A DNA stretch of 64,000 nt from Candidatus Parcubacteria bacterium. Its GTDB lineage: Bacteria > Patescibacteriota > Patescibacteriia > PEXW01. The position numbers and the translations under genes are program-made. A model generated the notes under the pieces. That model did not search any database and had not been told where the DNA came from. It was given only the letters and a program-made list of their open reading frames with translations. Positions 1,692 through 63,533 of this stretch are shown here, piece by piece (within the stretch, counting starts at the first letter, position 1; the number at the start of each line of letters is the position of its first letter). The DNA lies in the NCBI GenBank assembly GCA_003597955.1, contig QZJU01000021.1:44880-108879 (forward strand). Reading direction: 5' to 3'.

Positions 1692-2978
1692 ATGCCTACC
1701 CACAAAACTCAAGATTTATTTGATCAAAGATTGGAAAAAGAATTCGGACGCCACGCGCCCTTGGCCGACCGGATGCGGCCGGAAAAACTGGAGGATTTTT
1801 TCGGCCAAACGGAGATAATCGGCCAGGGCAAGCTGTTGCGCCAAGCCATTGAAAACGACGAAATTTTTTCCATAATTTTCTGGGGGCCGCCGGGCAGCGG
1901 CAAAACCACTTTAGCCAGGATTATCGCCAAACTGACCAAGTCGCATTTTGAACAAATTTCGGCCGTAACTTCGGGCCTGGCGGATTTACGGGCGTTGGTC
2001 AAGCAGGCGCTGGAGAGGCGGAAGTTCCAGAATTTACGGACCATTCTTTTTGTGGATGAAATTCATCGCTGGAACAAAGCCCAGCAGGATTCATTTTTGC
2101 CTTATGTGGAAAACGGCACCATTACTTTAATAGGCGCCACCACAGAAAACCCGTCTTTTGAAGTGATTTCGCCGCTGCTTTCCCGCGCCCGGGTTTTTGT
2201 TTTGGAAAGGCTGGGCGTTCCGGAATTATCCAGAATTGTGAAGCGCGCTTTATTGGATAAAGAAAGAGGTTTGGGCAAGGAAAAAATTAAGCTTGAGGCC
2301 AAGGGCATAGATGTTTTATTGGCCGGATCAAACGGCGATGCCCGGACTTTATTAAATGCTCTGGAAATCGCGGTCAAAGCCACAGCCAAAGACGCAAAAG
2401 GCGTTAAACATATTAAAACCCAGACCGTGGAAGAAGCTTTGCAGCACAAAGCTTTAATGTTCGATAAAAAAGGCGAAGAGCATTACAATGTGATTTCGGC
2501 TTTCATTAAATCCATGCGCGGGTCAGATCCGGACGCGAGCTTGTATTGGTTGAATCGTTTGGTGGAGGCCGGGGAAGATCCGGAATTCATTGCCCGGCGC
2601 ATGGTGGTTTTTGCTTCGGAAGATGTGGGCTTGGCTGATCCAAATGCGCTTGCCGTGGCCGTGAATGTTTTTCAAGCCGTGAAGCTAATCGGCTATCCCG
2701 AATGCCAGATAAATTTGGCTCACGGCGTGGTTTACTTGGCATTAACTCCGAAAAACAACACGGCCTATATGGGCTTAATGAACGCCAAGCAAGACGTGAA
2801 AGATACTTTAAATGAGCCCGTGTCTTTGCATTTGCGCAACGCGGTCACGGATTTGATGAAAGATTTGGGCTATCACAAAGGTTATAAATACAGCCATGAT
2901 TATGATAAAGAGGAGGGTAAACAGGAATATTTGCCAAAGAAATTAGTAGGTCGGAAGTATTTTTTTCCAAAAAAATGA
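1692..2978 (+). CDS. rarA: Replication-associated recombination protein A (RarA/MgsA AAA+ ATPase).
   Basis: Walker A GPPGSGKTTLARIIA and the downstream RarA-specific regions are present. The ORF track start at 1653 is probably an N-terminal extension. Confidence 0.85.
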   Translation: MPTHKTQDLFDQRLEKEFGRHAPLADRMRPEKLEDFFGQTEIIGQGKLLRQAIENDEIFSIIFWGPPGSGKTTLARIIAKLTKSHFEQISAVTSGLADLRALVKQALERRKFQNLRTILFVDEIHRWNKAQQDSFLPYVENGTITLIGATTENPSFEVISPLLSRARVFVLERLGVPELSRIVKRALLDKERGLGKEKIKLEAKGIDVLLAGSNGDARTLLNALEIAVKATAKDAKGVKHIKTQTVEEALQHKALMFDKKGEEHYNVISAFIKSMRGSDPDASLYWLNRLVEAGEDPEFIARRMVVFASEDVGLADPNALAVAVNVFQAVKLIGYPECQINLAHGVVYLALTPKNNTAYMGLMNAKQDVKDTLNEPVSLHLRNAVTDLMKDLGYHKGYKYSHDYDKEEGKQEYLPKKLVGRKYFFPKK

Positions 2979-3523
2979 AATTGCCGCGGTTTAACGAAGC
3001 AGGTTATGCGCATTTTGTTACGTCTAAAACCTATAAAAGCCGAAAAGTTTTTGACAATAAAGAGTGTTGTGAAATTCTGGTTGAGGATTTGAACTTTTAT
3101 GCAAAGAAGTTAAATTTTGAAATTTTAGGTTATTGCGTGATGCCGGAACACCTTCATTTAATTGTGCAGTGGGATGCGGAGAAACATCCGAAATTAACAA
3201 TTTCGAAAATAATGCAAGCGATAAAAAACCATTCTGCAAAAGAAATCGCTTTTTATTTAAAAACGGGTAGGCGAAAGCCCTCGCTTTCGCCATATTCAAA
3301 AGACGCGAGCGAGGGCTCGCGTCTACCCGCGAACTATAAATGGCTTGATCGTGGTTTAGTCCATACTAATTCGCTTGTAAAAATCTGGCAAGCCTCATTC
3401 TACGACTTCAACATTTATTCGGAAAGAATTCTTAACCAAAAATACACCTACATTTATTACAACCCGGTCCGCGCGGGCTTGTGTGAAAAGCCCGAGGATT
3501 GGCCGTGGACTTCCATCAAATAA
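2975..3523 (+). CDS. IS200-like / REP-associated tyrosine transposase (RAYT) family HuH-Y1 protein.
   Basis: HuH motif VMPEHLHLIV and the C-terminal WQASFYDF...YIYYNPVRAGL signature of Y1 transposase-like proteins. It carries a 21-aa low-complexity insertion encoded by a palindromic DNA doublet. Confidence 0.75.
   Translation: MKLPRFNEAGYAHFVTSKTYKSRKVFDNKECCEILVEDLNFYAKKLNFEILGYCVMPEHLHLIVQWDAEKHPKLTISKIMQAIKNHSAKEIAFYLKTGRRKPSLSPYSKDASEGSRLPANYKWLDRGLVHTNSLVKIWQASFYDFNIYSERILNQKYTYIYYNPVRAGLCEKPEDWPWTSIK
3265..3328. repeat. REPIN-like palindromic doublet lying inside the RAYT-like ORF.
   Basis: GGGTAG-GCGAAAGC-CCTC-GCTTTCGC ... GACGCGAGC-GAGG-GCTCGCGTC-TACCC. These are two inverted hairpins with outer GTAG/CTAC arms, and the two hairpins are partly complementary to each other. 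Confidence 0.55.
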
Positions 3524-38616: not shown

Positions 38617-41600
38617 TTAACGAACCGTTACCGAGCTTGTCCCCACGCCACCATCAAGGTTCACCACCTTAATAGTCTTCTTGCCTTTGGTAAGCTGAGT
38701 GCCATCTATGGTCAGCTGGATTTCCTTGCTGTTCTTGTATTTCACGGTTGTAGCTTTGCCGCCGACGGTGACCACAATGCCCGAAGCGAAGTTTTCGCCT
38801 TTAAGCGTTAGTTTGGCTGTGGCATTGGCAGTAGAAAGCGTGCCGGTCACTTTGCTGACCTTAGGTTTTAGTACGACCAAGCTGACATTCGAGCCGGAGA
38901 TCTTGATCCGCGGGCTGTTTTCTGACAAGGCCAGGTCTTCTTGAAAGCCTTTTTTGCCGAATTTAAAGACTTTGACATCGTTGCGGTTGCGAGTTTGGGT
39001 CAAGATGGCCAAACTGGCCAAACCCGCCTGATGAGCCTCCAAAGTCGTGACTTTCACCGAGCTGCTGCGCGTGGCGCCTGTGGCGATTTTATAACTCGCG
39101 AATTTTTTAGCCGCGTTATAAACTTTCACTTCAGTATTCGGCGCTTCTTTGCCCACCGTCAAGTCAGATTTGCCGTCTTTGGTCAAATCAGCCAAAAGCA
39201 GGCTGATCGAACCCTTATAGTTTTTGTACGGCTCCAAGGTTTTAACCAGTTTGCCTGAAGTGCTATAAACCTTAATTACGCTTTTGCCGGATTTAAGTTT
39301 TTCCGCCGGCGAAACAAAGATCCATTGCCCGGTTTTACTGCCGTAATTCGCCGTTGCCACATTTATGTTTGTGCCAGGGAAGGCTTTTATGGTTTTTTTA
39401 TTGACCGTAAAGCTGCCTTTATTTTTGCCCGTGCCCTTAGTGACGGCTTTTAAGGCTTTGGCGCTGGCATTGGTCACCAAACTATGCTTGGAGAAGTGGT
39501 CGCTTAAGACTGTTATGGTGTTATTCTCCAAATCTTGGGTGACATTAGACGGGGACTTCCAGGTGTTTGAGGTTTCATCAAAGTATTTTGGCAACAAGGC
39601 GCTTTCGTCCACGCCCGCGCCCTCCAACATTTTATCCGTGTACTTGAAAGTAATGGTTACGTTGGAATTGAACTTGGTAATCTCCGCGCCACTGCTGTTT
39701 AACGCTTTAAATTCGTAGCCGTACCAAGCCGGTTTGGCGGTTGACATGCTCATCAGGTTGGCAGTTGGCGTAGCTGTCAAAGTTATATTACCCTGGGTAG
39801 CAAAAGCCGAAGCGCCGGCTGTAATTGAAGTACCATCTTCCAAAATTATTGATTGCGCCTGTGTGGCATCGAAGGTGGTTGAGAAGGGTGCGGGCAAGCG
39901 GAAATTACTGTTGGCATCCAATCTGAAGTCCTGGGTGATGGTTTTTTGCGAACCGTCGACCACGATTGTGATTTCTTCGCTCCGCGCGAAATTATTGTCC
40001 CAGGCCGAATCGCAGCCAATGTGCCAAACGCCTTTGGAAACATTTATTTCATAGGCGCCATTGCGAACCTCGCCACCCGAGAAATTCCCGGTTTCTTCCC
40101 AGCCATGACAGAAGCCAAATGGTCCGCCGCCCGCAACGCGGCCTTTTATCTTAGCGTCGGCTTGGCGGAAGGCCAAGGTCACATTTGCCGTTTTTGCGCT
40201 GGTCAGATCGATTATCTGTGATTTTGCTGGCATATCAGGCGATCCGGGTTGGGGATTAGCCCGCACTTCATACTTGTGTCCGGTTAAGACCGTGATGCTT
40301 GCATTCCCGTTCCGATCGGTTTGGCCACCAACATGCAAGATATTTTTCATGTCTTGCGCGTTCGCCGGTCCGCCCATGGCTTGATTGGCTTTATCCGTGG
40401 ATTCGCCTTTAACCTTGCCTTTGAAAAACGACGCTCCGGTCATTTGGCCTTCGGGTGGGCCGAATTTCATGCACTCTTGTTCGTTTTCAGGCTTGGAACA
40501 AAAGGCTTTGCATTCCGTCTCGGTTTTGCATCCCCCTGGCCCAACCTGCACTTTGCCTGGAGCCGTGGAGGGGCCTTTAAACTTACCGCATTCGGCTTGG
40601 TTGGCCTTCTTTGAGCAGAAGTCAACGCAAGCCATGACATTTTTACATCCGCCAGGACCTTGAGCGATGCCAGGTAAGGCGGTTTTTTTGCACAATTCAA
40701 TCTGCTTTTTGTCATTCTTTTTTCTGGCCGTCTGGCAGATTTGGAACGGATCGCCCTTTTTGCCGTTTTTGTCTTTAAATTCCTGGCTTTGCAGGTTCTT
40801 AGGACCTTCGGGTCCAGGTCCGCCAGCCCGGTTAAAGACCTCAATTTCGTTGCCGATATCAACCCAGGCATTGGGGATGGGGGCGCCATTTGAGCCCAGA
40901 ACTTGGACATTCACCTTGCCGTCGCCGATTAAAGCCGTGATGTTCTTAACGATGCTCTGTCCGGCCTTGACTTCAATTGGGTCTGGTGCGGGATTGCTAT
41001 TCAAGAGGCCGCTGCCGTCGGCAAAATGGTAATTGAAATAGTATTTACCCGCCACCACGGAAATTCGGTAACTGCAGTCTTCCTTAAACATGGTGTTACG
41101 GCCACCTTTGGCCGGGTTGTGTACAAAGACTTCACCAAAAGAAAATTGTCCAGCCGGGGGCGTGCATTTGGTCAAAGGGATGCCGTTTACATCCACCAAA
41201 GAACCATATATAGAAGAATTATTTTTCACTAAAGTAAGTGTGGCGTCCGTGGTGCTGTTAGCGGCGATAGCGACGGTAGCGCCGACATCGCTAACTGAAT
41301 ATTCTGATTCCGGCGGCATGTGCATGCCTAATTGCACTAAGGAGAAAACCGAAGAAGGAAGTTTAATGATAGCAATGCCATCCGGATTTAAAGAGCCGCC
41401 GTAATTCTGTCCCGGACCGAACTCTTGGGCTCCGGCCTTTTGCGCCCAAACCCAACCATTAATTCCGTTTACGGTGTTGCCGGCCTCGTCTTTGACAGTC
41501 ACGCGGATGGTGGCGTCAGCTTTCACGACAACCACATTGCCGATTGCGGCTGAGGATGTATCGGTTTCAAGAATTACCTCAGGAATCATTGCGCTGGACA

Positions 41601-42789
41601 CATACATTGGCGCGCTTGGGTTATTCGGGTCAACCCAATTGTCGATATTGACATTGCACCGACCAGCCAAGACTGCGATATCAAAAGTACCGTTGCTGGC
41701 AGAGGTGGCATTACCATTAACGCCAGGTTGCGGGCCCATATTGTTGGTGGAACCCAAAGGCATACACCAAGCGTTAATCCTGACATTGCCAACAGGCGTG
41801 CCGCTGCCGTCAACTAGCGTGCCGGTGATGTGCGCGGTTTTTTCTTTTACGGCAAAGTTGGCAGTAGCCGTTTGTCCGTCTGTAACGCTCACAATAGCGG
41901 AGGTGGCGGTTAAGTTCTGATTTTCATTATTCCAGTAACTGACATTAAAGGTTCCGGCAGGCACGCGCATGGAATAAGAACCGCCCACAACTTGAGCGTT
42001 GCCGCCACCGCCCGGGCCCATGGTTGACCACGCATTCATGTTTCCACTGGTAACCGGCGCGCCAGTACTGGCGTAGGTCACTGTGCCGGTGATAGTGGCC
42101 GTGGCTTTAGTGACTTGGAAATTCACGGTCCGAGTTTCAGCGGAATTGTCATTCGTGAATGTTACATCATAAGGTGGTTCGTTGTAGGACCAATCAGCCC
42201 CTGCGGGCGGCGTAAGATTAAGACCGTATTTGGAACTGGCCGCGAGAGTGAGCGTGTAATTGCCGTTTGCGTCAGTTGTAGCGTTGCCGCCCCCGGGATT
42301 AAAGTATGACCAGCTATTTACGATTGCGCCGACTACGGGCGTGGAAGTGCCCCGGTAGGTAATCGTGCCGGTAATAGTTTTGGGCGGTACGGTTAAATTC
42401 AGATTTTTATTAGTGACGTCCGTGTTAACCGTGAACGGCGCTGAAACCGCGCGCGTGAGACCGGATTGGGAATAATCCGGCATGGCTTCTAAAATGTAGG
42501 TTCCGGGAAAGACGCCAGCGATTGAGTAATTACCGTTTTCCCCAGGGTTTATCCATCGGCCGTAGTGGTAAAGGTGGTCGGTTGTGTATAAATCGACCTG
42601 AACATTGACGGCCGGCGTGACACCGTCAGGGCGATATATTGTGCCGCTGACCGTGTAAGTGTCTTGAGCTAAAGCCTTAAGAGGGTTAAAAAGTGAGCTT
42701 ATGCCAGAACCGAAAGGCAAACCGGTTATGGCCAAAATAGTCAATATGCCAAATAAGCGTTTGATTATTTTGAAAGGTTTTTTACGCAT
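38617..42789 (-). CDS. Large (1390-aa) secreted or surface repetitive protein with tandem Cys4 modules.
   Basis: N-terminal signal peptide. Beta-rich T/N/G/S repeats. Two tandem modules of about 34 aa (PGGCK-x4-C-x2-FCSK...EC-x-KFGP) near residues 700-770. Confidence 0.65.
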   Translation of the reverse strand: MRKKPFKIIKRLFGILTILAITGLPFGSGISSLFNPLKALAQDTYTVSGTIYRPDGVTPAVNVQVDLYTTDHLYHYGRWINPGENGNYSIAGVFPGTYILEAMPDYSQSGLTRAVSAPFTVNTDVTNKNLNLTVPPKTITGTITYRGTSTPVVGAIVNSWSYFNPGGGNATTDANGNYTLTLAASSKYGLNLTPPAGADWSYNEPPYDVTFTNDNSAETRTVNFQVTKATATITGTVTYASTGAPVTSGNMNAWSTMGPGGGGNAQVVGGSYSMRVPAGTFNVSYWNNENQNLTATSAIVSVTDGQTATANFAVKEKTAHITGTLVDGSGTPVGNVRINAWCMPLGSTNNMGPQPGVNGNATSASNGTFDIAVLAGRCNVNIDNWVDPNNPSAPMYVSSAMIPEVILETDTSSAAIGNVVVVKADATIRVTVKDEAGNTVNGINGWVWAQKAGAQEFGPGQNYGGSLNPDGIAIIKLPSSVFSLVQLGMHMPPESEYSVSDVGATVAIAANSTTDATLTLVKNNSSIYGSLVDVNGIPLTKCTPPAGQFSFGEVFVHNPAKGGRNTMFKEDCSYRISVVAGKYYFNYHFADGSGLLNSNPAPDPIEVKAGQSIVKNITALIGDGKVNVQVLGSNGAPIPNAWVDIGNEIEVFNRAGGPGPEGPKNLQSQEFKDKNGKKGDPFQICQTARKKNDKKQIELCKKTALPGIAQGPGGCKNVMACVDFCSKKANQAECGKFKGPSTAPGKVQVGPGGCKTETECKAFCSKPENEQECMKFGPPEGQMTGASFFKGKVKGESTDKANQAMGGPANAQDMKNILHVGGQTDRNGNASITVLTGHKYEVRANPQPGSPDMPAKSQIIDLTSAKTANVTLAFRQADAKIKGRVAGGGPFGFCHGWEETGNFSGGEVRNGAYEINVSKGVWHIGCDSAWDNNFARSEEITIVVDGSQKTITQDFRLDANSNFRLPAPFSTTFDATQAQSIILEDGTSITAGASAFATQGNITLTATPTANLMSMSTAKPAWYGYEFKALNSSGAEITKFNSNVTITFKYTDKMLEGAGVDESALLPKYFDETSNTWKSPSNVTQDLENNTITVLSDHFSKHSLVTNASAKALKAVTKGTGKNKGSFTVNKKTIKAFPGTNINVATANYGSKTGQWIFVSPAEKLKSGKSVIKVYSTSGKLVKTLEPYKNYKGSISLLLADLTKDGKSDLTVGKEAPNTEVKVYNAAKKFASYKIATGATRSSSVKVTTLEAHQAGLASLAILTQTRNRNDVKVFKFGKKGFQEDLALSENSPRIKISGSNVSLVVLKPKVSKVTGTLSTANATAKLTLKGENFASGIVVTVGGKATTVKYKNSKEIQLTIDGTQLTKGKKTIKVVNLDGGVGTSSVTVR

Positions 42790-43020
42790 ATTTTATTCGT
42801 TAATAAAAAATAACCCAACGCCGCCGACAAACGGCGCGAGGAAAATTAAAGAAAAAGCTTGATGAATTTTTAGGTTTTTTATCGCTCATTTAATAAGCCG
42901 AAGCTGGCTTAAACTGAGGATTAACTTAAAATTAACTATAACAAACTAAGCCCAGCCTTGACAAGTTAAGCCAGAAATCAATTATTTTGGACAATTAATC
43001 TGTAGGCGCCTGAATTTTTT

Positions 43021-43154
43021 AACATCGATCACCACCGGCAAAATCACCCTGTACCATTAAAGGGTACGGGATGAGAATAGTCGAAAAGCCTGTTTAGACA
43101 AGCGTAAAAACTTAATTTAATTAAACATCAATTACCACTGGCAAGATCATTGGG
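43021..43154. repeat. Imperfect ~30-bp direct repeat duplicating the rnj 3' end, flanking a GTACC-type hairpin.
   Basis: Copy B (43123-43154) is the rnj C-terminus (...RRPMILPVVIDV*). Copy A (43021-43052) would encode RVILPVVIDVKK. The hairpin CACCCTGTACC-attaaa-GGGTACGGG at 43045-43070 lies between them. Confidence 0.5.
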
Positions 43155-44839
43155 CGTCGGTTGGTTTTATTAAAGAAGTATTGGCCCAATTCATCACGGA
43201 TTTTATTACCGATATAGGCGTCATTTGCCTCGGTATGGCTTTTTTTATCTTTAAAAAAGGTTTTGACGCGTTTTCTAGTTTCTTCAATCAAGGCCTTGCT
43301 GGTTTTGATGTGCACAAAACCGCGAGTAATGATGTCAGGCTCGCCAATGATATTGCCCGTGTGCCGATCAACATTAACAATCACTACGACCATACCGTCA
43401 GCGGCCAGCATTTGTCGGTCGCGCAAGACCACATTGGAAACATCGCCGACGCCTAAGCCGTCGACAAAGACATAATCAGTTACAGCTTTTTGGTTAAGGA
43501 GTTTGGGCTGGCCATGGGTGAATTCCAGAATCGCACCGTTGTCCAGCACAAAAATTTTTTCCCGGGGGAAGCCTTCGCGAACCGCTAATTTTTCCGCTTC
43601 TTTGTGGAAATAGTGGTTGGCGTAAACCGGCAAAAAATAAGTCGGCCGGATTTGCTTGAGCACGGTTTTCATGTCTTCGGCCGTGCTGTGACCGCTGGAA
43701 TGAATATCCATAATATCGCTGTGGATGACGTTATCGCTGACGCGATAAAGATTGTCTTTCAACCTTTGGATGGTGCGTTCATTGCCTGGAATGATTGAAG
43801 ACGAAAAAACAATAGTGTCGGTTTTTTGAATGCGGACGAAGCGATGGTTTCGGTTGATGATGCGGGAAAGCACGGCATTGCTTTCGCCCTGCGCGCCCGT
43901 GCATATGATGACGATTTTCCGGTCCGGATAATCGCGGATTCTTTCGATGGGAATTAAGGTTTCTTTTTTGATTTTTATGTAACCCAAGCGTTTAGCGGTT
44001 TCCACATTCATTTTCATACTAAAGCCGTCCAAGGCCACTCTTTTGCCGATTTTTTCACAAAACTCCAGGACGTATTTGATTCTTGCCACCTGGGAAGAAA
44101 AAGTGCCGATGATGATGCGGCCGGGCGCTTCACGAATCAGCTTTTCCAAATTGCCGTACATGGTTTTTTCCGTCACGCGATTATGGGTATGGGTCGCGCC
44201 CAGGCTCTCCAGCATTAAAATTGTGGGCTTGGGCAAGCGTGCCAGCTTGGAATATTCCACCGATTGCCGGCCCACCGGATCTTTTTCATAAGTCCAGTCG
44301 CCCGGGTGTATGACCGTGCCGTGGGGGGTGTTAAGAATAACGCCCATGGCATCCATTATTGAATGATCAACTGGGAAAAACCCAACCGAAAAATTTCCCA
44401 GGCGCAGGCGATCGTTGACTGATTTTACCGTAATAGTTTTTAGCCTCTGACTTGAGCCTTTTTTGTAATCTTCCTGCCGGTTTTTAATCAAGGCTAAAGT
44501 TAAAGGCCGGCCAATTATGCTCGGATTGCCCAGTTTTTCCAGCAGAATCGGTGCCGCACCAATATGGTCTAAATGGCCGTGGGTGAAGATTACACCCCGC
44601 ACCTTGGCTTCCTTGCCCTTTAAATAACTGATGTTAGGAATTATGTAATCAATTCCCAGCATGTCTTCTTCGGGGAATTGCACGCCCATATCCACAACAA
44701 CAATATCGTCCTTATATTCAAAGATGGTCATGTTGCGGCCAACTTCCTCTTGGCCGCCGACAGGAATAATTCTTAAACTGTCAGCCGGTTTGAGGCCTTG
44801 GAAGCTCTTGAATTTTTTAGGATTTTTATATTTTTTCAT
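43121..44839 (-). CDS. rnj: Ribonuclease J (beta-CASP metallo-beta-lactamase).
   Basis: HxHxDH motif (THGHLDHIG) and beta-CASP and C-terminal domains. The start is placed at MKKYKNP so the gene does not overlap the NUDIX gene. Confidence 0.88.
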   Translation of the reverse strand: MKKYKNPKKFKSFQGLKPADSLRIIPVGGQEEVGRNMTIFEYKDDIVVVDMGVQFPEEDMLGIDYIIPNISYLKGKEAKVRGVIFTHGHLDHIGAAPILLEKLGNPSIIGRPLTLALIKNRQEDYKKGSSQRLKTITVKSVNDRLRLGNFSVGFFPVDHSIMDAMGVILNTPHGTVIHPGDWTYEKDPVGRQSVEYSKLARLPKPTILMLESLGATHTHNRVTEKTMYGNLEKLIREAPGRIIIGTFSSQVARIKYVLEFCEKIGKRVALDGFSMKMNVETAKRLGYIKIKKETLIPIERIRDYPDRKIVIICTGAQGESNAVLSRIINRNHRFVRIQKTDTIVFSSSIIPGNERTIQRLKDNLYRVSDNVIHSDIMDIHSSGHSTAEDMKTVLKQIRPTYFLPVYANHYFHKEAEKLAVREGFPREKIFVLDNGAILEFTHGQPKLLNQKAVTDYVFVDGLGVGDVSNVVLRDRQMLAADGMVVVIVNVDRHTGNIIGEPDIITRGFVHIKTSKALIEETRKRVKTFFKDKKSHTEANDAYIGNKIRDELGQYFFNKTNRRPMILPVVIDV

Positions 44840-44843
44840 ATTT

Positions 44844-45284
44844 TTATTTTTGATTTTTCTTGAAACGGATAAAAGCTTTAATGGTTTTGTCATAAGTTTC
44901 GGCAAGATTTTTCTTTAGAGCTTGATCCGGCGCCACCCATAAATATTTGTTTAATTCACGGGTTTCCAACCTTATTCGTCCGCCTTTGGTGCGGCAGTAA
45001 ATATCAAAATAAATAAAATGGGCCGGACGGTAAAAGTCCTTAGAATTTATCAGTTCGCCCCAGGCGACAATCGCAATCGCTTTTAACTTTAAACCCGTTT
45101 CTTCTTGGGCTTCCCGAATTTGAGAGGTCAGAATGTTTTCACCGGGTTCCAGGTGTCCGCCCGGCAGAGTCCATTTGTTATGCCATTTTTGGGAGCGCAC
45201 CAGAAGAATTTGTCCTTTTGGATTCTCAATAATTGCTGAACCGACAACTTCAATACCTTTAGTAAACTTGAGGTTTTTTTTCAT
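44844..45284 (-). CDS. NUDIX hydrolase.
   Basis: Nudix box GGHLEPGENILTSQIREAQEETGL. Confidence 0.75.
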   Translation of the reverse strand: MKKNLKFTKGIEVVGSAIIENPKGQILLVRSQKWHNKWTLPGGHLEPGENILTSQIREAQEETGLKLKAIAIVAWGELINSKDFYRPAHFIYFDIYCRTKGGRIRLETRELNKYLWVAPDQALKKNLAETYDKTIKAFIRFKKNQK

Positions 45285-45305
45285 TGCTGACAAATAATTT
45301 TAAAA

Positions 45306-45397
45306 TGGTGTCCTAGGTAGGTGGGACTCGTACTCCCATGACCTTGCGGTCATCCGCCTAGGCGGGACGCGTCAGTTGGTGCACTCTACTGGACAAG
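45306..45397 (-). other. tRNA-like or structured RNA-like element ending in ACACCA. It did not fold as a canonical cloverleaf.
   Basis: Read on the - strand: GTGCAC, GACGCGTC, CCGC-CTAG-GCGG, ATGACC-GCAA-GGTCAT (GNRA hairpin), and TGGGA-GTACGAG-TCCCA (T-arm-like), then ...GGACACCA. Confidence 0.3.
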
Positions 45398-45572
45398 TTT
45401 AGAACCCTGAAATGGGAGGATTATTACCGCTTTCCAGAAGTAGCGCTACAGCAAATGAAATCTTTATTGCAAATGTACCCTGCTCCAATTTCCTAATACT
45501 AGCTTAAAAGCGTTTAAAAATCAAGGGAAAAGTGGTAAAATAGAAGACAAGTAAAGATGTAACGAAGAAGTA

Positions 45573-46127
45573 ATGAAAAAAGAGCAAAATCATCCACAAA
45601 CTAGGGAGCGTATCGCACGGTTGTTGATAGACAAGGGGTTTTTAGAAATGCTGGAAAAAGGGCGTACAAAAAAGAATGAGGAGTTAGATAAGTGGATTTG
45701 TGAGATACGAAAAAACTTCAATCTTTCAAAGTATTATCACAGAGTGTTGCAGACAATAATTTCTATTCCTGACATTCAATATCAAAAGTTCTTAGCTGGC
45801 ACAGCGTGTATCATCGCATTACCTGATGAGTGTCGTAAGAAAAATTATTTTGCAATAGAAGTATTCCCTGAAACATCAGAAAAAGACGTGGTAAGAGCAT
45901 TTTCGGCAATACGCAAGAAATATCACGAATCAGATGAAATACCAAAACGGCTTCGAACCTCACCAAGTTTTTCCAAACAACAGTATGCCTTACAGAGGAG
46001 CGAAGATGGAGCAACGTATAAGAAAATTGCAGAAGAATTGAAGCAAATGGGTTATTCTACGACCTATTTTGAGGTTTCAGATTTAATAAGAAAAATCAAA
46101 AACAAGGCTAAGTCGGTTTCTGGTTGA
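45573..46127 (+). CDS. Hypothetical protein (element cargo) with a possible C-terminal HTH.
   Basis: ORF of 184 aa. The C-terminal ATYKKIAEELKQMGYSTTYFEVSDLIRKIK resembles a sigma-70 region-4-like HTH. Confidence 0.45.
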   Translation: MKKEQNHPQTRERIARLLIDKGFLEMLEKGRTKKNEELDKWICEIRKNFNLSKYYHRVLQTIISIPDIQYQKFLAGTACIIALPDECRKKNYFAIEVFPETSEKDVVRAFSAIRKKYHESDEIPKRLRTSPSFSKQQYALQRSEDGATYKKIAEELKQMGYSTTYFEVSDLIRKIKNKAKSVSG

Positions 46128-46351
46128 TAACGATATAGTTATCGGCCTTATACGTGATTTTGATAGGTAGATAGACTGTGGGTAGAAAGCTCACAGTCTT
46201 ATGAAACTAAGTAGCCAAAAATTATCTGAATTAAAGCAAATCATACAGGATGATTTTGGTGTCAAGCTTGATGACCAATTCGTTTTTGTTATTGGCAGTG
46301 AACTTATTGCACTATTTGACCATTTGTACTCTTACGATTTTCAACAAAAAA

Positions 46352-46645
46352 ATGAGCAACCTAACGAGCGTAACTGAAATATCAATCACGCCTATTAGAC
46401 CACGAGATGGTCTTACCGCTTTTGCCTCTTTTGTCCTTGACGATAAGTATTTCGTTGCAGGCGTAGCAATTTTTACAAAATTGAGCGGTGGCTTCCGCTT
46501 GGTTTTCCCGACCCGCAAAATTGGTCAAACCAATCTCAATTTGTTTAATCCAATCAAGCGTGAAGTTGGCGAGATAATTGAGAGAAAAGTTAGTGAAGAA
46601 TTAACAAAACTGTATGATAGACAACTTACGGAATATAAAACTTAG
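46352..46645 (+). CDS. SpoVG-like protein.
   Basis: ITPIRPRDGLTAFASFVLDDKYFVAGVAIFTKLSGGFRLVFPTRK matches the SpoVG fold signature. The start is placed at MSNLTSV. Confidence 0.6.
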   Translation: MSNLTSVTEISITPIRPRDGLTAFASFVLDDKYFVAGVAIFTKLSGGFRLVFPTRKIGQTNLNLFNPIKREVGEIIERKVSEELTKLYDRQLTEYKT

Positions 46646-46679
46646 AGTCCCTAAATGTTGGCAGGATAAAAGGATAATG

Positions 46680-47033
46680 CGTTTTTTGAGAAAACATTAT
46701 TCGGGGAAAAAACGTACAACCGCCATAGCAATTTATGTAACTCTAAGCGAGATGGCAAGTAATGCTAATTCAGAAACCTTTAAGTCCTATTACAGTCAAA
46801 TTGGTGAGATGGCTGGTAAATCATCATCAACCATCAAGCGTTATTGCAATGATTTTATCAAGCTGACTATTTTAGAAAAAAAGAATCATAAGAAGGGGAA
46901 GCACAACTTAGCTAATCAGTGGTCGTTACTAGCATACTCTCCAATGAGATTACAGTCGGGTCGTAATAATGACCTGACCCCTAATAAAATTAGTCTCAAC
47001 CAAGGCCAAAATAATAACCCCGACTCCATTTAA
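46680..47033 (+). CDS. Hypothetical, possibly a winged-helix DNA-binding protein (element cargo).
   Basis: The start is placed at MRFLRK. The ORF track start at 46614 overlaps the preceding gene. Confidence 0.4.
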   Translation, partial: RFLRKHYSGKKRTTAIAIYVTLSEMASNANSETFKSYYSQIGEMAGKSSSTIKRYCNDFIKLTILEKKNHKKGKHNLANQWSLLAYSPMRLQSGRNNDLTPNKISLNQGQNNNPDSI

Positions 47034-47132
47034 TATACTGACCACATCTCTACTTACCTAATGACCCACTAATAGAATATATTACTTAGAATTATTTACT
47101 AAGAAGGATACCCCCCATAAGCTAATCCTTAT

Positions 47133-47501
47133 ATGAAGTGTCAATTTACAAAACAAGACGGCCAACAATGTGAGGGAAATGCAATATATGATAGCCAGTA
47201 TTGTTTTTCGCATAACCCTGACAGTCGGCAGGCAAAGAATGAGGCAGTCTTAAACGGCGGGCTTGCCCTCAAAAAAATAAAGTTTGAATTAGAAGAAGTC
47301 GAAATAAAATCTATTCAGGACATCACTGCACTTTTGGCCAAAACAATAAATGAACTTAGGACTAACAAAATCCCACCCAAAATCGCCGTTAATATAGGTT
47401 ATTTATCAAACATCATGATTACATCTCTTAAGGAGGGTGAGATTGAAAAAAGATTGGAGGTGATAGAAAATGCAATCAAACTACATAAGTCGAATGAATA
47501 A
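47133..47501 (+). CDS. Hypothetical protein with an N-terminal Cys4 cluster (element cargo).
   Basis: CQFTKQDGQQCEGNAIYDSQYCFSH. Confidence 0.45.
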   Translation: MKCQFTKQDGQQCEGNAIYDSQYCFSHNPDSRQAKNEAVLNGGLALKKIKFELEEVEIKSIQDITALLAKTINELRTNKIPPKIAVNIGYLSNIMITSLKEGEIEKRLEVIENAIKLHKSNE

Positions 47502-48051
47502 AATTATTTCCGAAATGGATTTACCAGCGATGGATGAGCATTTTTTCAATAGTGGAGGTTTAAGTTTTTTAAATGGGCTACCAAAAGGCAAAGTGACGTC
47601 GTTACTTTTGTATGGGACATACCAATCCTCAAGGTTTTATCTTGTCACGGTAGCGTTTAATAAAATTAAACTCTTGACGTATATCAGCGAGCTGATTGCA
47701 GAAGAGTTTGAAAACCTAATTTTGTTATCATACCTCTTTAGTGTTTCAGGCGATGAGAAAACTGTGAGGATGAGAAAATTATTCTCTGATAAGAACCCCG
47801 ATGACACACTAAAGCAAATCTCCCAGTTAGTAGAGAGGCAATCGGTTTTACTAGAGGAATTATCGAAGTTGAAACCACTAATAAAGGAAAACCACAACAC
47901 ACCTTATGTTAGCGAGCAATTTGACGGCTGCAACTTGAAGGATTTGGAAAATAAAATCCTTAATGAGTCATTTTCAGTTGGTTTGGAGACAGCCAATTTA
48001 ATAGCAAAAAAACTCTTAATTTCGTTGACAAATAGCCTATATGAGGCATAA
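47470..48051 (+). CDS. Hypothetical protein (element cargo).
   Basis: ORF overlapping the previous gene by 32 nt (translationally coupled). Confidence 0.45.
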   Translation: MQSNYISRMNKIISEMDLPAMDEHFFNSGGLSFLNGLPKGKVTSLLLYGTYQSSRFYLVTVAFNKIKLLTYISELIAEEFENLILLSYLFSVSGDEKTVRMRKLFSDKNPDDTLKQISQLVERQSVLLEELSKLKPLIKENHNTPYVSEQFDGCNLKDLENKILNESFSVGLETANLIAKKLLISLTNSLYEA

Positions 48052-48215
48052 TTAAGGCACAATCTAAATAGCGGTGACACGCATTCAAGCCCCCGTAAGG
48101 GTGGGTCGAAGCGTGTCACCGCATTAAGCCCATACCTGCGGGGGCTTCAATTTCCAGACAAATATGCAGGTCATTAACAGTCAATTCTTTAAGAAAATAA
48201 TTAACCAAAAGAAGT

Positions 48216-48815
48216 ATGGACAACCAACCTTCTCAAGAGCAAAAACCAAAAAGTAAGTTAAAAAGATTGGGTAAAAGAGTTTTAGCCGTAATAGTTGGGC
48301 TAGTGGCTTTGTTTGTCATTCTGATAATTGTTGCAGTTGCCACAGATAACAAAAATAGTAATAGTAACAGTGCTGGTAGTGAAAATAATAACGCAAGCAG
48401 CGTGGAGATGACCTATGAGAGTAAACTTGAAAAAGCAATCACTGATGAGATTGGCGCAAAAAATAATATGGATAAACCAAAAGTCAGGAGCGTTAAGGTG
48501 ATGAATCCTAATGAAACGTTGGTTGAAATCAACGGCGACGAGAACCTGACAAGTGGGATGACTAAAAAAGGAATTGATAAGGACATCCTCAACACGTTCA
48601 AGGCTATATTCGCCACTGATACAAACCCCAATCTCCTTGCGTCTGTTGATGTTTATTTCCCGACAGTGGACAAATACGGCAATGAATCCGATAACCGTGT
48701 TATCCGTGCTCTCCTTAAACGGGAAACTGCTAACAAGATACAGTGGGATAATATCTTGTTAGAAAATATCCCAGCCGTGTTCGATGATTACGATGAGTAT
48801 GTAAAGTTTGAGTAA
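48216..48815 (+). CDS. Membrane-anchored hypothetical protein (element cargo).
   Basis: N-terminal TM helix followed by a Ser/Asn-rich linker. Confidence 0.45.
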   Translation: MDNQPSQEQKPKSKLKRLGKRVLAVIVGLVALFVILIIVAVATDNKNSNSNSAGSENNNASSVEMTYESKLEKAITDEIGAKNNMDKPKVRSVKVMNPNETLVEINGDENLTSGMTKKGIDKDILNTFKAIFATDTNPNLLASVDVYFPTVDKYGNESDNRVIRALLKRETANKIQWDNILLENIPAVFDDYDEYVKFE

Positions 48816-48817
48816 CC

Positions 48818-50401
48818 ATGAATGCCGTCCTATTCGCCAGAGTGTCCAGTAAAGAGCAGGAGGAGTCAGGGTACTCCCTCCCCGCTCAAGAAAAACTCCT
48901 TAAAGAATACAGCGAGAGGAAAAGTTTTAGCATTGCTAAGATATTTTCCATTTCAGAGTCAGCAACTGGCAAAAAGCAACGGGAGACATTCAACGAGATG
49001 ATTGAGTATGTGACCAAAGGCAATATCAAGCACATCATCTGCGAGAAAGCCGACAGGCTGACCCGAAACTTCAAGGATATGGTGATGATTGATGACTGGC
49101 TGGGTAAGGACGCAGAACGGCAGGTGCACCTTGTTAAAGACTCTCTCGTCTTGCACCAAAACTCCCGCTCCCAAGAAAAGCTTAACTGGGGTATCCGTGT
49201 GCTGTTCGCAAAAAATTACGTTGATAATCTGGCCGAGGAGGTCAAGAAAGGCAAGCGTGAAAAAGTAGCGCAAGGATGGTATCCGACACGGCCACCTTTA
49301 GGGTATATTTCCGTGGGTGAAAGAAGCCACAGGATTTGCGTACCTGACGAACATAAAGCCCCTCTTATCAGGAAAATGTTTGAGTGGTACGCAACAGGCA
49401 ATTACTCCCTAAAGAAGGTGGTGGAAATGATGTATGAAACGGGCTTAAGGACAATCCACAATACCAAGGTACAAAAAAGTCGGCTTCACCAGATTTTGTC
49501 TGACCCCTTTTACTGCGGAAAAATTGTCTGGAAGGGTGAAGAATATCAGGGGAAACAAGAAAAAATCGTGTCAGAGGAGTTGTTTCAGCAAGTCCAAGCA
49601 ATCCTTAAGCAAAAAACGACCCCGCACTACCGCAAACACCTCTCGCTGTTTAAGGGGTTAATCAGGTGCAGTGAATGTGGCGGGTTAATCACTTGGGAAA
49701 CGCACAAAGGGCATTGGTACGGTCACTGCAACCATTACCGTAACTGCTCCAAAAAGGAGTATGTGAGGCAAGAAAAACTTGAGGAACAACTACTCAACCA
49801 ATTTGTAGCTATAGCGCCTAAAAGCGATAGGTTGGTCAAATGGATACAGGAAGCGCTCAAGGAAAGCCACGCAGACGAGATTACGTTCAATACCCAAGCC
49901 CGTGATGAGCTTAACCGTCGCTATGAACACGCCCAGAAGCGCCTAGAAGTCCTCTACGACGACAAAATTGACGGTAAGATAACTACGGAGTTCTACGAGG
50001 CCAAGTTCAAACAGTACAGCGCAGAGCAGAAGGCTGTTTTGAAATCACTTAATGACCACGATGACGCCAAGTCCAAGTATTACGAGCTTGGTGTTAATGT
50101 GCTCGAGCTGGCTCATAGGGCAAAAGAAATCTACGAGCACCCCAAAATGCTGGTTGAGCAGAGACGGACGCTACTTAACCATATTTTTTCGAACCTGCGC
50201 TTAAATGGCGATAGATTAGAGGTTTCTTACACGCCAGTAGTTGAGGTTTTAGCGCAATTGACTCCCGCCCTCAATAAAACTTTCGAACTCCAGAAAAGTA
50301 CCGCAAACACAACACTAACCCTTCAAAGTATGAACGGTTCTAGTGTTTGGTGCCGGAGAGAGGACTTGAACCTCCAAGGGCTTGCGCCCACACGGCTCTG
50401 A
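48818..50401 (+). CDS. Large serine recombinase (resolvase/invertase N-domain, recombinase domain and zinc ribbon).
   Basis: Catalytic Ser region AVLFARVSSKEQ, a recombinase domain, and a CSECGG...HCNHYRNC zinc ribbon. The last ~17 codons are encoded by tRNA-Leu sequence. Confidence 0.8.
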   Translation: MNAVLFARVSSKEQEESGYSLPAQEKLLKEYSERKSFSIAKIFSISESATGKKQRETFNEMIEYVTKGNIKHIICEKADRLTRNFKDMVMIDDWLGKDAERQVHLVKDSLVLHQNSRSQEKLNWGIRVLFAKNYVDNLAEEVKKGKREKVAQGWYPTRPPLGYISVGERSHRICVPDEHKAPLIRKMFEWYATGNYSLKKVVEMMYETGLRTIHNTKVQKSRLHQILSDPFYCGKIVWKGEEYQGKQEKIVSEELFQQVQAILKQKTTPHYRKHLSLFKGLIRCSECGGLITWETHKGHWYGHCNHYRNCSKKEYVRQEKLEEQLLNQFVAIAPKSDRLVKWIQEALKESHADEITFNTQARDELNRRYEHAQKRLEVLYDDKIDGKITTEFYEAKFKQYSAEQKAVLKSLNDHDDAKSKYYELGVNVLELAHRAKEIYEHPKMLVEQRRTLLNHIFSNLRLNGDRLEVSYTPVVEVLAQLTPALNKTFELQKSTANTTLTLQSMNGSSVWCRREDLNLQGLAPTRL

Positions 50402-50434
50402 ACCGTGCGTGTATACCAGTTTCACCACTCCGGC
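50348..50434 (-). tRNA. tRNA-Leu (anticodon CAG), long variable arm, 3' CCA encoded.
   Basis: The cloverleaf folds by eye. Acceptor GCCGGAG/CTCCGGC, anticodon loop UUCAGAG, T-arm GGAGG-TTCAAGT-CCTCT, then ACCA. Confidence 0.8.
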
Positions 50435-63390: not shown

Positions 63391-63481
63391 TAATCTGACC
63401 TCCGAGTTGCTTTTAGGTGCATTGTTGAAGTTAGTTTTGATTTTCAAATTGGTATATTAGCAAATCCATGTCTTTTGTCAA

Positions 63482-63524
63482 CCCCGTACCACCCTGTACC
63501 ATTTCGGTGCAGGGTGGTACGGGG
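63482..63524. repeat. Perfect 15-bp-stem palindrome (GTACC family).
   Basis: CCCCGTACCACCCTG-taccatttcggtg-CAGGGTGGTACGGGG. Confidence 0.6.
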
Positions 63525-63533
63525 TCAAGCGAA

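Follow-up and report, generated by a model that had tools for sequence, protein, structure and literature searches.

A duplicated rnj gene end around a conserved hairpin in Patescibacteria: possible footprint of a miniature site-specific insertion

In a Candidatus Parcubacteria bacterium (GenBank assembly GCA_003597955.1), the last nine codons of rnj, the gene for RNase J, occur twice, once at the functional end of the gene and once more downstream, behind a short spacer and a GC-rich hairpin. We analysed this arrangement in a window of 64,000 nucleotides of contig QZJU01000021.1 (C2:44880-108879; positions below are those of the window unless a contig or locus is named), taken from a genome of 990 kb, 46% GC and 21 contigs that we call G000. 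A hairpin module of about 100 nt here ends an essential RNA-decay gene, and the displaced tail is free of amino-acid changes across the species of the genus. We tentatively read the hairpin and the second tail together as a single module, left by a small, site-specific and non-autonomous insertion that replaced the tail of rnj and displaced the native one, a reading that seems quite possible to us, if still somewhat short of probable.

The rnj gene lies on the minus strand (43121-44905 in the list of open reading frames (ORFs)), encodes 594 amino acids with Pfam matches to RNase_J_b_CASP (3.5e-41), RNase_J_C (1.5e-31) and Lactamase_B, and closes with a TAA stop codon that the same list places at 43121-43123. 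A repeat search of the window paired 43121-43149 with 43018-43046 as a direct repeat (24 of 29 nt identical, spacing 103 nt), which bears out the preliminary description of this DNA, where the rnj tail had been noted as duplicated around a hairpin. Copy 1 is the functional tail, with the codons ATG ATC TTG CCA GTG GTA ATT GAT GTT (MILPVVIDV; 43124-43150, minus strand), and copy 2 is the displaced or duplicated tail, GTG ATT TTG CCG GTG GTG ATC GAT GTT (VILPVVIDV; 43021-43047, minus strand). The 27-nt repeat is the 3' end of rnj and the upstream copy preserves both reading frame and stop, as in an att-type arrangement. Alignments delimit a spacer of 50 nt from the rnj stop to the hairpin (43071-43120, minus strand), followed by the GTACC hairpin itself (43047-43070), which has 9-nt arms, CCCTGTACC and GGGTACGGG, a 6-nt loop and a stem made imperfect by one bulged base, and which abuts copy 2. 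There is no coding sequence between the two copies. In the stop position of copy 2, G000 has AAA, and the open frame continues to a TAA at about 42982.

The closest relatives of this rnj come from metagenome-assembled Patescibacteria, some of whose bins are labelled Uhrbacteria or Veblenbacteria. When the rnj 3' flank was compared among relatives, the module was found throughout the genus and was missing in family-level relatives, so that the site is empty in the latter and occupied in three of three genus species. G000 and the two other species of its genus, G001 and G002, whose RNase J is 86% identical, share one layout, namely the rnj stop, a spacer of 45-50 nt, a hairpin of the form CCCYGTACC...GGTACRGGG and then copy 2, which in the genus reads GTG ATN TTG CCN GTN GTN ATN GAT GTN. 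In G001 and G002 the spacer measures 47-48 nt, the hairpin loop 25-26 nt, copy 2 is closed by TAG, and the exact hairpin pattern is single-copy, at rnj only. The G000 hairpin is a shortened form of the 43-44-nt hairpin at the same junction in these two species; its module is degraded, the loop having gone from about 26 to 6 nt (about 20 nt lost) and the stop of copy 2 having disappeared. No duplication was seen in eight family- or order-level relatives, several of which carry a plain terminator (GC stem plus T-run) after the stop.

The same module is present in two distant Patescibacteria lineages from metagenomes (loci L034/L037 and L054), whose RNase J is 53-56% identical over the last 160 residues and whose junction is that of the genus, ACGGGG followed by T[G/A][A/G]T. 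Searches of about 50 other metagenome loci, 29 other genome loci and 400 sampled genomes of the phylum did not recover it. The stem shows a compensatory change, with a C-G pair in G001, L034 and L054 versus T-A in G002; in the intact forms it takes in the first bases of copy 2 as well, through G-U, U-G and U-A pairs. The spacers of G002 and L054 have the motifs ACGGT..AATTTT..ATCGYGTCTTG in common (61% identity), and the G000 spacer cannot be aligned to those of G001 and G002; the likeness between distant lineages, taken together with the unlikeness within the genus, fits movement of the module between lineages. In L034, AGA AGA CCG A (RRP plus A) stands between stop and hairpin. We considered this stretch as part of a longer pseudo-tail split by the hairpin, but it also aligns at 10 of 14 positions to the end of the L054 spacer and may therefore be chance.

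Both the preliminary description and a simple scar would lead one to expect a second tail in decay. The four differences between the two copies of G000 (C/T, A/G, A/G and T/C) are, however, all synonymous and at third positions. Over the five lineages, comparison of copy 1 with copy 2 gives 26 nucleotide differences, of which 24 fall on third codon positions; of the changed codons 24 are synonymous (including Leu CTT/TTA) and a single one, L to H in L054, alters the residue. When the three species of the genus are compared with one another in copy 2, six of six variable sites are third-position (p of about 2e-4), although the neighbouring spacer is unalignable. Judged by this substitution pattern, copy 2 is not in neutral decay, and the later decay that had been suggested for it finds no support. 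Copy 2 also carries the residues of its own lineage, D in the genus and V at position 2 in L054, from which we conclude that it derives from a tail that is either local or closely related. In L037, codon usage does not tell which copy is foreign.

In the proposed course of events, the insertion would have taken place at the Met codon with which the nine-codon tail of rnj starts. It would have left copy 1, intact and with its stop, then a short spacer, a conserved GC-rich hairpin and, abutting the hairpin at a fixed junction, copy 2. This would be the layout of the attL/attR-type direct repeats of 3'-end integrative elements that bring a replacement gene end, shrunk to about 75-120 bp. As both tails are in a coding-like state, each would have been a working end of rnj until recently, either through repeated insertion and excision (toggling) or through independent arrivals in each lineage. 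That rnj was the target of an insertion had also been suggested in the preliminary description, as a palindromic element with a target duplication; the duplication is indeed of an insertion type and family-level relatives are without it, but a 27-nt target duplication of a transposase that decays neutrally finds no support. Remnants flanked by att sites are known from the 3' ends of genes, among them the cis-mobilizable elements (CIMEs) related to ICESt1/ICESt3 in fda of Streptococcus thermophilus and the islands at tRNA and transfer-messenger RNA (tmRNA) 3' ends. The arrangement at rnj is like these in that its direct repeat consists of about 27 bp from the end of a conserved gene, which stays intact thanks to the upstream copy, and in that the displaced tail lies at the far side of an insert without genes of its own. 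The genomes that carry it also show duplicated 3' ends of tRNA-Leu and, at this tRNA, an island with a recombinase. It differs in that its insert is only 45-91 nt long, in a conserved hairpin that marks the exact junction with the displaced copy, and in its target, rnj, for which we found no report; moreover, no integrase was linked to it, and the displaced copy shows coding-type conservation across species. Neither the use of rnj as an integration site nor repeats of this kind in Patescibacteria, a group with tiny genomes whose mobile DNA is poorly described, turned up in our literature searches. The TIGR arrays that surfaced in these searches do not fit single dispersed copies. The viral contigs searched contained no RNase J relative, and the two pattern matches were set aside as chance matches in GC-rich coding DNA.

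Several observations weigh against a site-specific insertion. Neither an excised nor an empty form was seen within the genus, where all three species are occupied, and the metatranscriptome contigs contain no joint that lacks the segment, with 42838-42905 and 43076-43109 without cover. A large element bordered by the two tails turned up nowhere, none of the recombinases of G000 (large serine, tyrosine hits, Y1 HUH) is linked to the rnj site, and no GTACC motif and no motif of the transposable-element family described below occurs within 350 nt of the three Y1 genes of G000. Hairpins placed exactly at the junction are not known to be standard in att sites. All three genus species have a module of similar size, which favours a single event in their ancestor; the synonymous-only pattern would then need ongoing selection, to which a dead scar would not be subject. 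The fold z-score of the G000 hairpin region is only -1.4, and a scan for intrinsic terminators (GC-rich stem, then at least 5 T in 8) did not call the rnj hairpin, whose tail, TGATTTTG, has an interrupted U-tract; this missing call still leaves room for a terminator function.

The codon-periodic conservation of copy 2, in a genus whose spacers cannot be aligned, would also be expected if the module were functional as it stands and the second tail were under selection through its use as coding sequence. Copy 2 might then be a hairpin-gated mini-ORF of nine codons starting from GTG, its nonapeptide equal to the C-terminus of the enzyme, or an alternative 3' end of rnj, reached when a segment of about 100 nt (working tail, stop, spacer and hairpin) is removed from RNA or DNA, perhaps in repeated cycles of excision and return in which the two tails alternate as the real end of RNase J. 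We consider this unlikely, at roughly half the weight that we give to the insertion. A stop closes copy 2 in the right place in four of five lineages, GTG opens it in four of five, the loop holds a Shine-Dalgarno-like run 9-11 nt before the GTG (GAGGGGGAG in G002, GAGGAGGA in G001), and the extension of the stem into copy 2 by way of G-U pairs is workable only in sense-strand RNA. However, copy 2 of L034 opens with GTA, which is no start codon, and a well-placed Shine-Dalgarno sequence is missing there; in G000 the loop, the Shine-Dalgarno-like run and the stop are all gone; and the frame of copy 2 varies (the spacing of the copies modulo 3 is 1, 1, 2, 0 and 1 in the five lineages), so that no single rule of frameshift or read-through fits. 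The module matches no Rfam family or ribozyme and is rare, being absent from the 400 sampled genomes, and we know of no role for the C-terminal nonapeptide of RNase J, which counts against such a use. A small ORF through spacer, hairpin and copy 2 was considered and rejected: it is open in G001, G002 and L054, but its start is not conserved, and upstream of the hairpin its frame is broken by an indel of 1 nt that separates G002 from L054. Programmed bypass of the T4 gene 60 type, frameshift and read-through were likewise rejected, the frame relation of the copies not being fixed in the five lineages, as was a diversity-generating retroelement, given that the wobble differences are not adenine-specific and the repeat is only 27 nt.

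The match of each copy 2 to the amino acids of its own lineage could also have a purely local origin, a tandem duplication of the tail that arose through slippage or a template switch at a terminator-like hairpin. No mobile element would take part, and occasional two-way gene conversion with the working tail would keep copy 2 clean. The position of the hairpin exactly at the end of the homology agrees with such a process, as do the duplicated termini that stand beside hairpins at 16S and tRNA-Leu. Yet an identical hairpin sequence and junction would then have had to arise in each of three distant lineages, unless a single, very old event was followed by many losses; the spacer motifs shared by G002 and L054 speak against it, and conversion would erase synonymous differences equally, whereas 4-7 of about 8 third positions differ. 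We therefore regard local duplication as unlikely, and slightly more so than a functional second tail.

Should the tail be conserved because the module moves or is read, the module would be among the smallest site-specific elements described and would help to show how essential genes can be entered by such elements without harm; should copy 2 be used, it would represent an undescribed kind of mini-element or regulatory device in Patescibacteria; and even if it is only a scar, it would be a clean case of gene-end replacement at rnj, a target for which no earlier report was found. The conservation pattern of this rarer hairpin-and-tail module is not explained by simple decay.

The rnj hairpin had also been assigned to one repeat family with a larger palindrome at 63482-63524, whose perfect 15-bp outer stem we confirm (19 pairs when followed inward, one of them G-T). 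Support for a common family comes from the 14-mer CACCCTGTACCATT, which occurs exactly twice in the window, at 43045 and 63490, and from the multi-copy nature of the GTACC motif in G000, where the 11-mer CACCCTGTACC has 10 occurrences in the 990-kb genome against 0.35 expected. However, the two have in common only the inner GTACC core and five further bases, and the flanks of the rnj hairpin (...ctcat and tgatt...) show neither the CCCCGCACCAC terminal repeat nor a 4-bp repeat. The palindrome itself is a true miniature inverted-repeat transposable element (MITE), inserted into the TTGA of a -35 box. It represents the short form (43 bp), with CCCCGCACCAC terminal repeats, a GTACC hairpin at its centre and the loop ATTTC, and it is flanked by 4-bp target-site duplications, TCAA at 63478-63481 on the left (TTGA on the minus strand) and TCAA at 63525-63528 on the right. 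The promoter that it hit lies on the minus strand at 63454-63481, with the -35 hexamer TTGACA (63481-63476), a 16-nt spacer and the -10 hexamer TAATAT (63459-63454), and faces the gene that runs from 62833 to about 63386. The orthologous divergent promoter region of G001 has a single TTGACA-16-TAGAAT and no element.

A search of the whole genome of G000 with the 19-nt half-site returned about a dozen full palindromes, all intergenic. Since the exact palindrome pattern was absent from the 40 relatives searched, a looser search based on the terminal repeats of the outer arms was made, which uncovered the larger family, bounded by CCCCGCACCAC...GTGGTGCGGGG, of which the palindromes are the short form. 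G000 holds about 44 copies, some 33 long (~100 nt) and some 11 short (39-48 nt); a further 19 were found in G002, 5 in G001 and a few in the genomes of two family-level relatives, G003 and G007. The flanking 4-mers are identical and co-varying in 23 of 43 copies (16 TTGA/TCAA, 7 TTTA), with most of the others 1 nt off, and this marks them as a target-site duplication. Where a MITE end abuts TTGAC, TAnnnT follows 16-18 nt downstream in 22 of 23 cases versus 9.7% of all TTGAC sites, an enrichment which indicates that the elements sit on the -35 hexamers of real promoters. Long-form copies have conserved ends, CCCCGCACCACTTTCC, and a conserved central inverted repeat, AAGATATT...AATATCTT, with variable segments between; the nearest ones, which lie outside the window, are at C2:981, 2063 and 14142. 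In G002 (L006:3359-3480), a long-form MITE with a TTGA duplication stands directly after the stop of copy 2 and precedes the presumed ancestral rnj terminator, CCCCCAAG...CTTGGGGGTTTT.

These features separate the family from the rnj module and largely refute the earlier model, in which a palindromic element of the 63482-63524 family transposed into the rnj end, produced a target duplication there, and both hairpin and duplication then decayed. The shared 14-mer, the many copies of the family in G000 and the degraded loop and copy-2 stop of the G000 hairpin are what it could explain. Against these stand the missing CCCCGCACCAC terminal repeat and 4-bp TTGA/TTTA duplication at rnj, a 27-nt duplication unlike the 4 bp of the family, a module that predates G000 and is present where the GTACC hairpin is single-copy, and a substitution pattern that rejects neutral decay. 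We consider this model very improbable.

Among known elements, the MITE family resembles the Correia elements of Neisseria, which are MITEs with outward or adjacent promoters. It shares with them terminal inverted repeats, a short target duplication, a length of 40-105 bp, the lack of coding capacity, dozens of copies, an intergenic location beside promoters and presence or absence between sister species. It differs in its terminal repeat, CCCCGCACCAC, in a 4-bp TT[G/T]A duplication instead of TA, and in that no autonomous partner was found, a search confined to G000 having given no convincing long terminal-repeat pair. Unlike Correia elements, the family brings no promoter of its own; its copies insert into the TTGA of a -35 box that is already present and restore this box by way of the target duplication, which makes the family a simple marker for promoters and for strain typing in these organisms. 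The window copy is an ordinary, though neat, promoter-seeking MITE.

The rnj hairpin is old, positionally conserved and single-copy in the sister species, so that the GTACC family of G000 is more likely derived from the rnj hairpin than the reverse. The GTACC core would later have spread in G000 to the 16S leader, to the tmRNA trailer and to the centres of the short MITE subfamily including 63482-63524. The G000 hairpins at these three kinds of site resemble the intact rnj hairpin of G002, CCCTGTACCCGA...GTGGTACAGGG, a likeness which points to an rnj-type hairpin as the ancestor from which the core spread in G000.

Duplicated gene ends beside hairpins are not confined to rnj. In the 16S leader of G000 and G002 a pseudo-copy of the 16S 5' end is split by hairpins, of GTACC type in G000 and of other types in G002; G003 and a further relative, G004, are without it. 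In the genus, the 16S 5' end is partially repeated two or three times in this leader (TGAGAGTTT...GATCCT; L085:958-1175, on contig C6 of G000, and L138:1370-1505, from G002), and over the 85 nt up to the real 16S 5' end, which include TTGACA, G000 and G002 are about 95% identical, a level that other intergenic DNA does not approach. A GTACC hairpin also follows the tmRNA gene of G000. At that locus (L086:529-944, contig C17) a 14-nt inverted repeat, CATGAACCATTCGC and GCGAATGGTTCATG, surrounds about 70 nt, followed by the GTACC hairpin and then by an ORF of 88 amino acids that, by eye, is a candidate GIY-YIG-like protein.

Similarly, in G002 a like hairpin stands directly before an exact 18-nt second copy of the 3' end of tRNA-Leu(CAG), about 450 nt past the real gene; locus L022 has a like hairpin before a tRNA-Leu-like 3' end, and in G001 a displaced tRNA-Leu 3' half follows the gene. 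In G000, a stretch of about 5 kb (45300-50434) extends from tRNA-Leu(CAG) (50348-50434, minus strand) to a degenerate second tRNA 3' end (GCACCAA, at about 45395). It contains a large serine recombinase of 527 amino acids (48818-50401) that overlaps the tRNA 3' end, a SpoVG-like ORF (46250-46645) and five ORFs without a Pfam match. As tRNA-Leu lies just upstream of rnj in G001 and G002, this stretch of G000 looks like an integrated island.

Short GC-rich extragenic hairpins, several of them in G000, also recall repetitive extragenic palindromes (REPs) and their associated tyrosine transposases (RAYTs), and genes of the Y1_Tnp family occur in all three genus species. In G000 there are Y1 HUH (IS200/RAYT-like, PF01797) ORFs of 168-209 amino acids at 2975-3523 of the window (plus strand), C12:14149-14655 and C17:36692-37321, with four matches in G001 and five in G002. 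These proteins are candidate hairpin-handling enzymes, without a link to the elements described here. Unlike in REP/RAYT systems, G001 and G002 each carry the exact GTACC pattern only once, the Y1 genes of G000 have no flanking hairpins and no conserved 5' tetranucleotide was identified; moreover, we know of no REPs that accompany duplicated gene ends.

With regard to a present role, the G000 remnant may act as a 3' stem-loop or weak terminator. Like a Rho-independent terminator or a 3' stabilising stem-loop, its GC-rich stem stands directly after rnj and is followed by UGAUUUUG, and in G000 it is the sole strong hairpin between rnj and the next promoter-like site. It departs from a terminator in its interrupted U-tract, family-level relatives use a different, canonical terminator, and the duplicated codons would be left unexplained. 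Rfam scans of the window and of related loci gave no family or ribozyme at the hairpin or the module. One metatranscriptome contig is 99% identical to 43112-43374 and then, starting 9 nt past the rnj stop, continues with 30 unrelated letters, which match nothing in G000 or in the related loci retrieved. This divergence may be strain variation in the downstream spacer or an assembly effect and is a weak hint of strain-level variation at the rnj site. Contigs from three RNA runs all stop at 42813-42817.

Downstream of the module, promoter-like hexamers lie on both strands at 42935-42985, recognised by consensus match only. The promoter-like box of the preliminary description exists on the plus strand (TTGACA-16-AATTAT, 42958-42985), where it would be antisense to rnj, but the region is better read on the minus strand, as TTGTCA-18-TGtTATAGT with a TG extension (42964-42935). 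In that orientation it faces the gene downstream of rnj, which encodes a protein of 1390 amino acids (38617-42789), and its -10 aligns with TATTAT in G002; we favour the minus-strand reading. Between this box and the 1390-residue protein gene lies a conserved leader (42790-42935, minus strand) with the motifs CTCAGTTT and GCTTGTCGGC/AGCTTCGGC, which could be a small leader ORF or an attenuator. It includes a hairpin, GCGCCG-TTTGT-CGGCGGC, with a T-rich tail (42837-42818), and leader motifs and hairpin recur downstream of rnj in family-level relatives.
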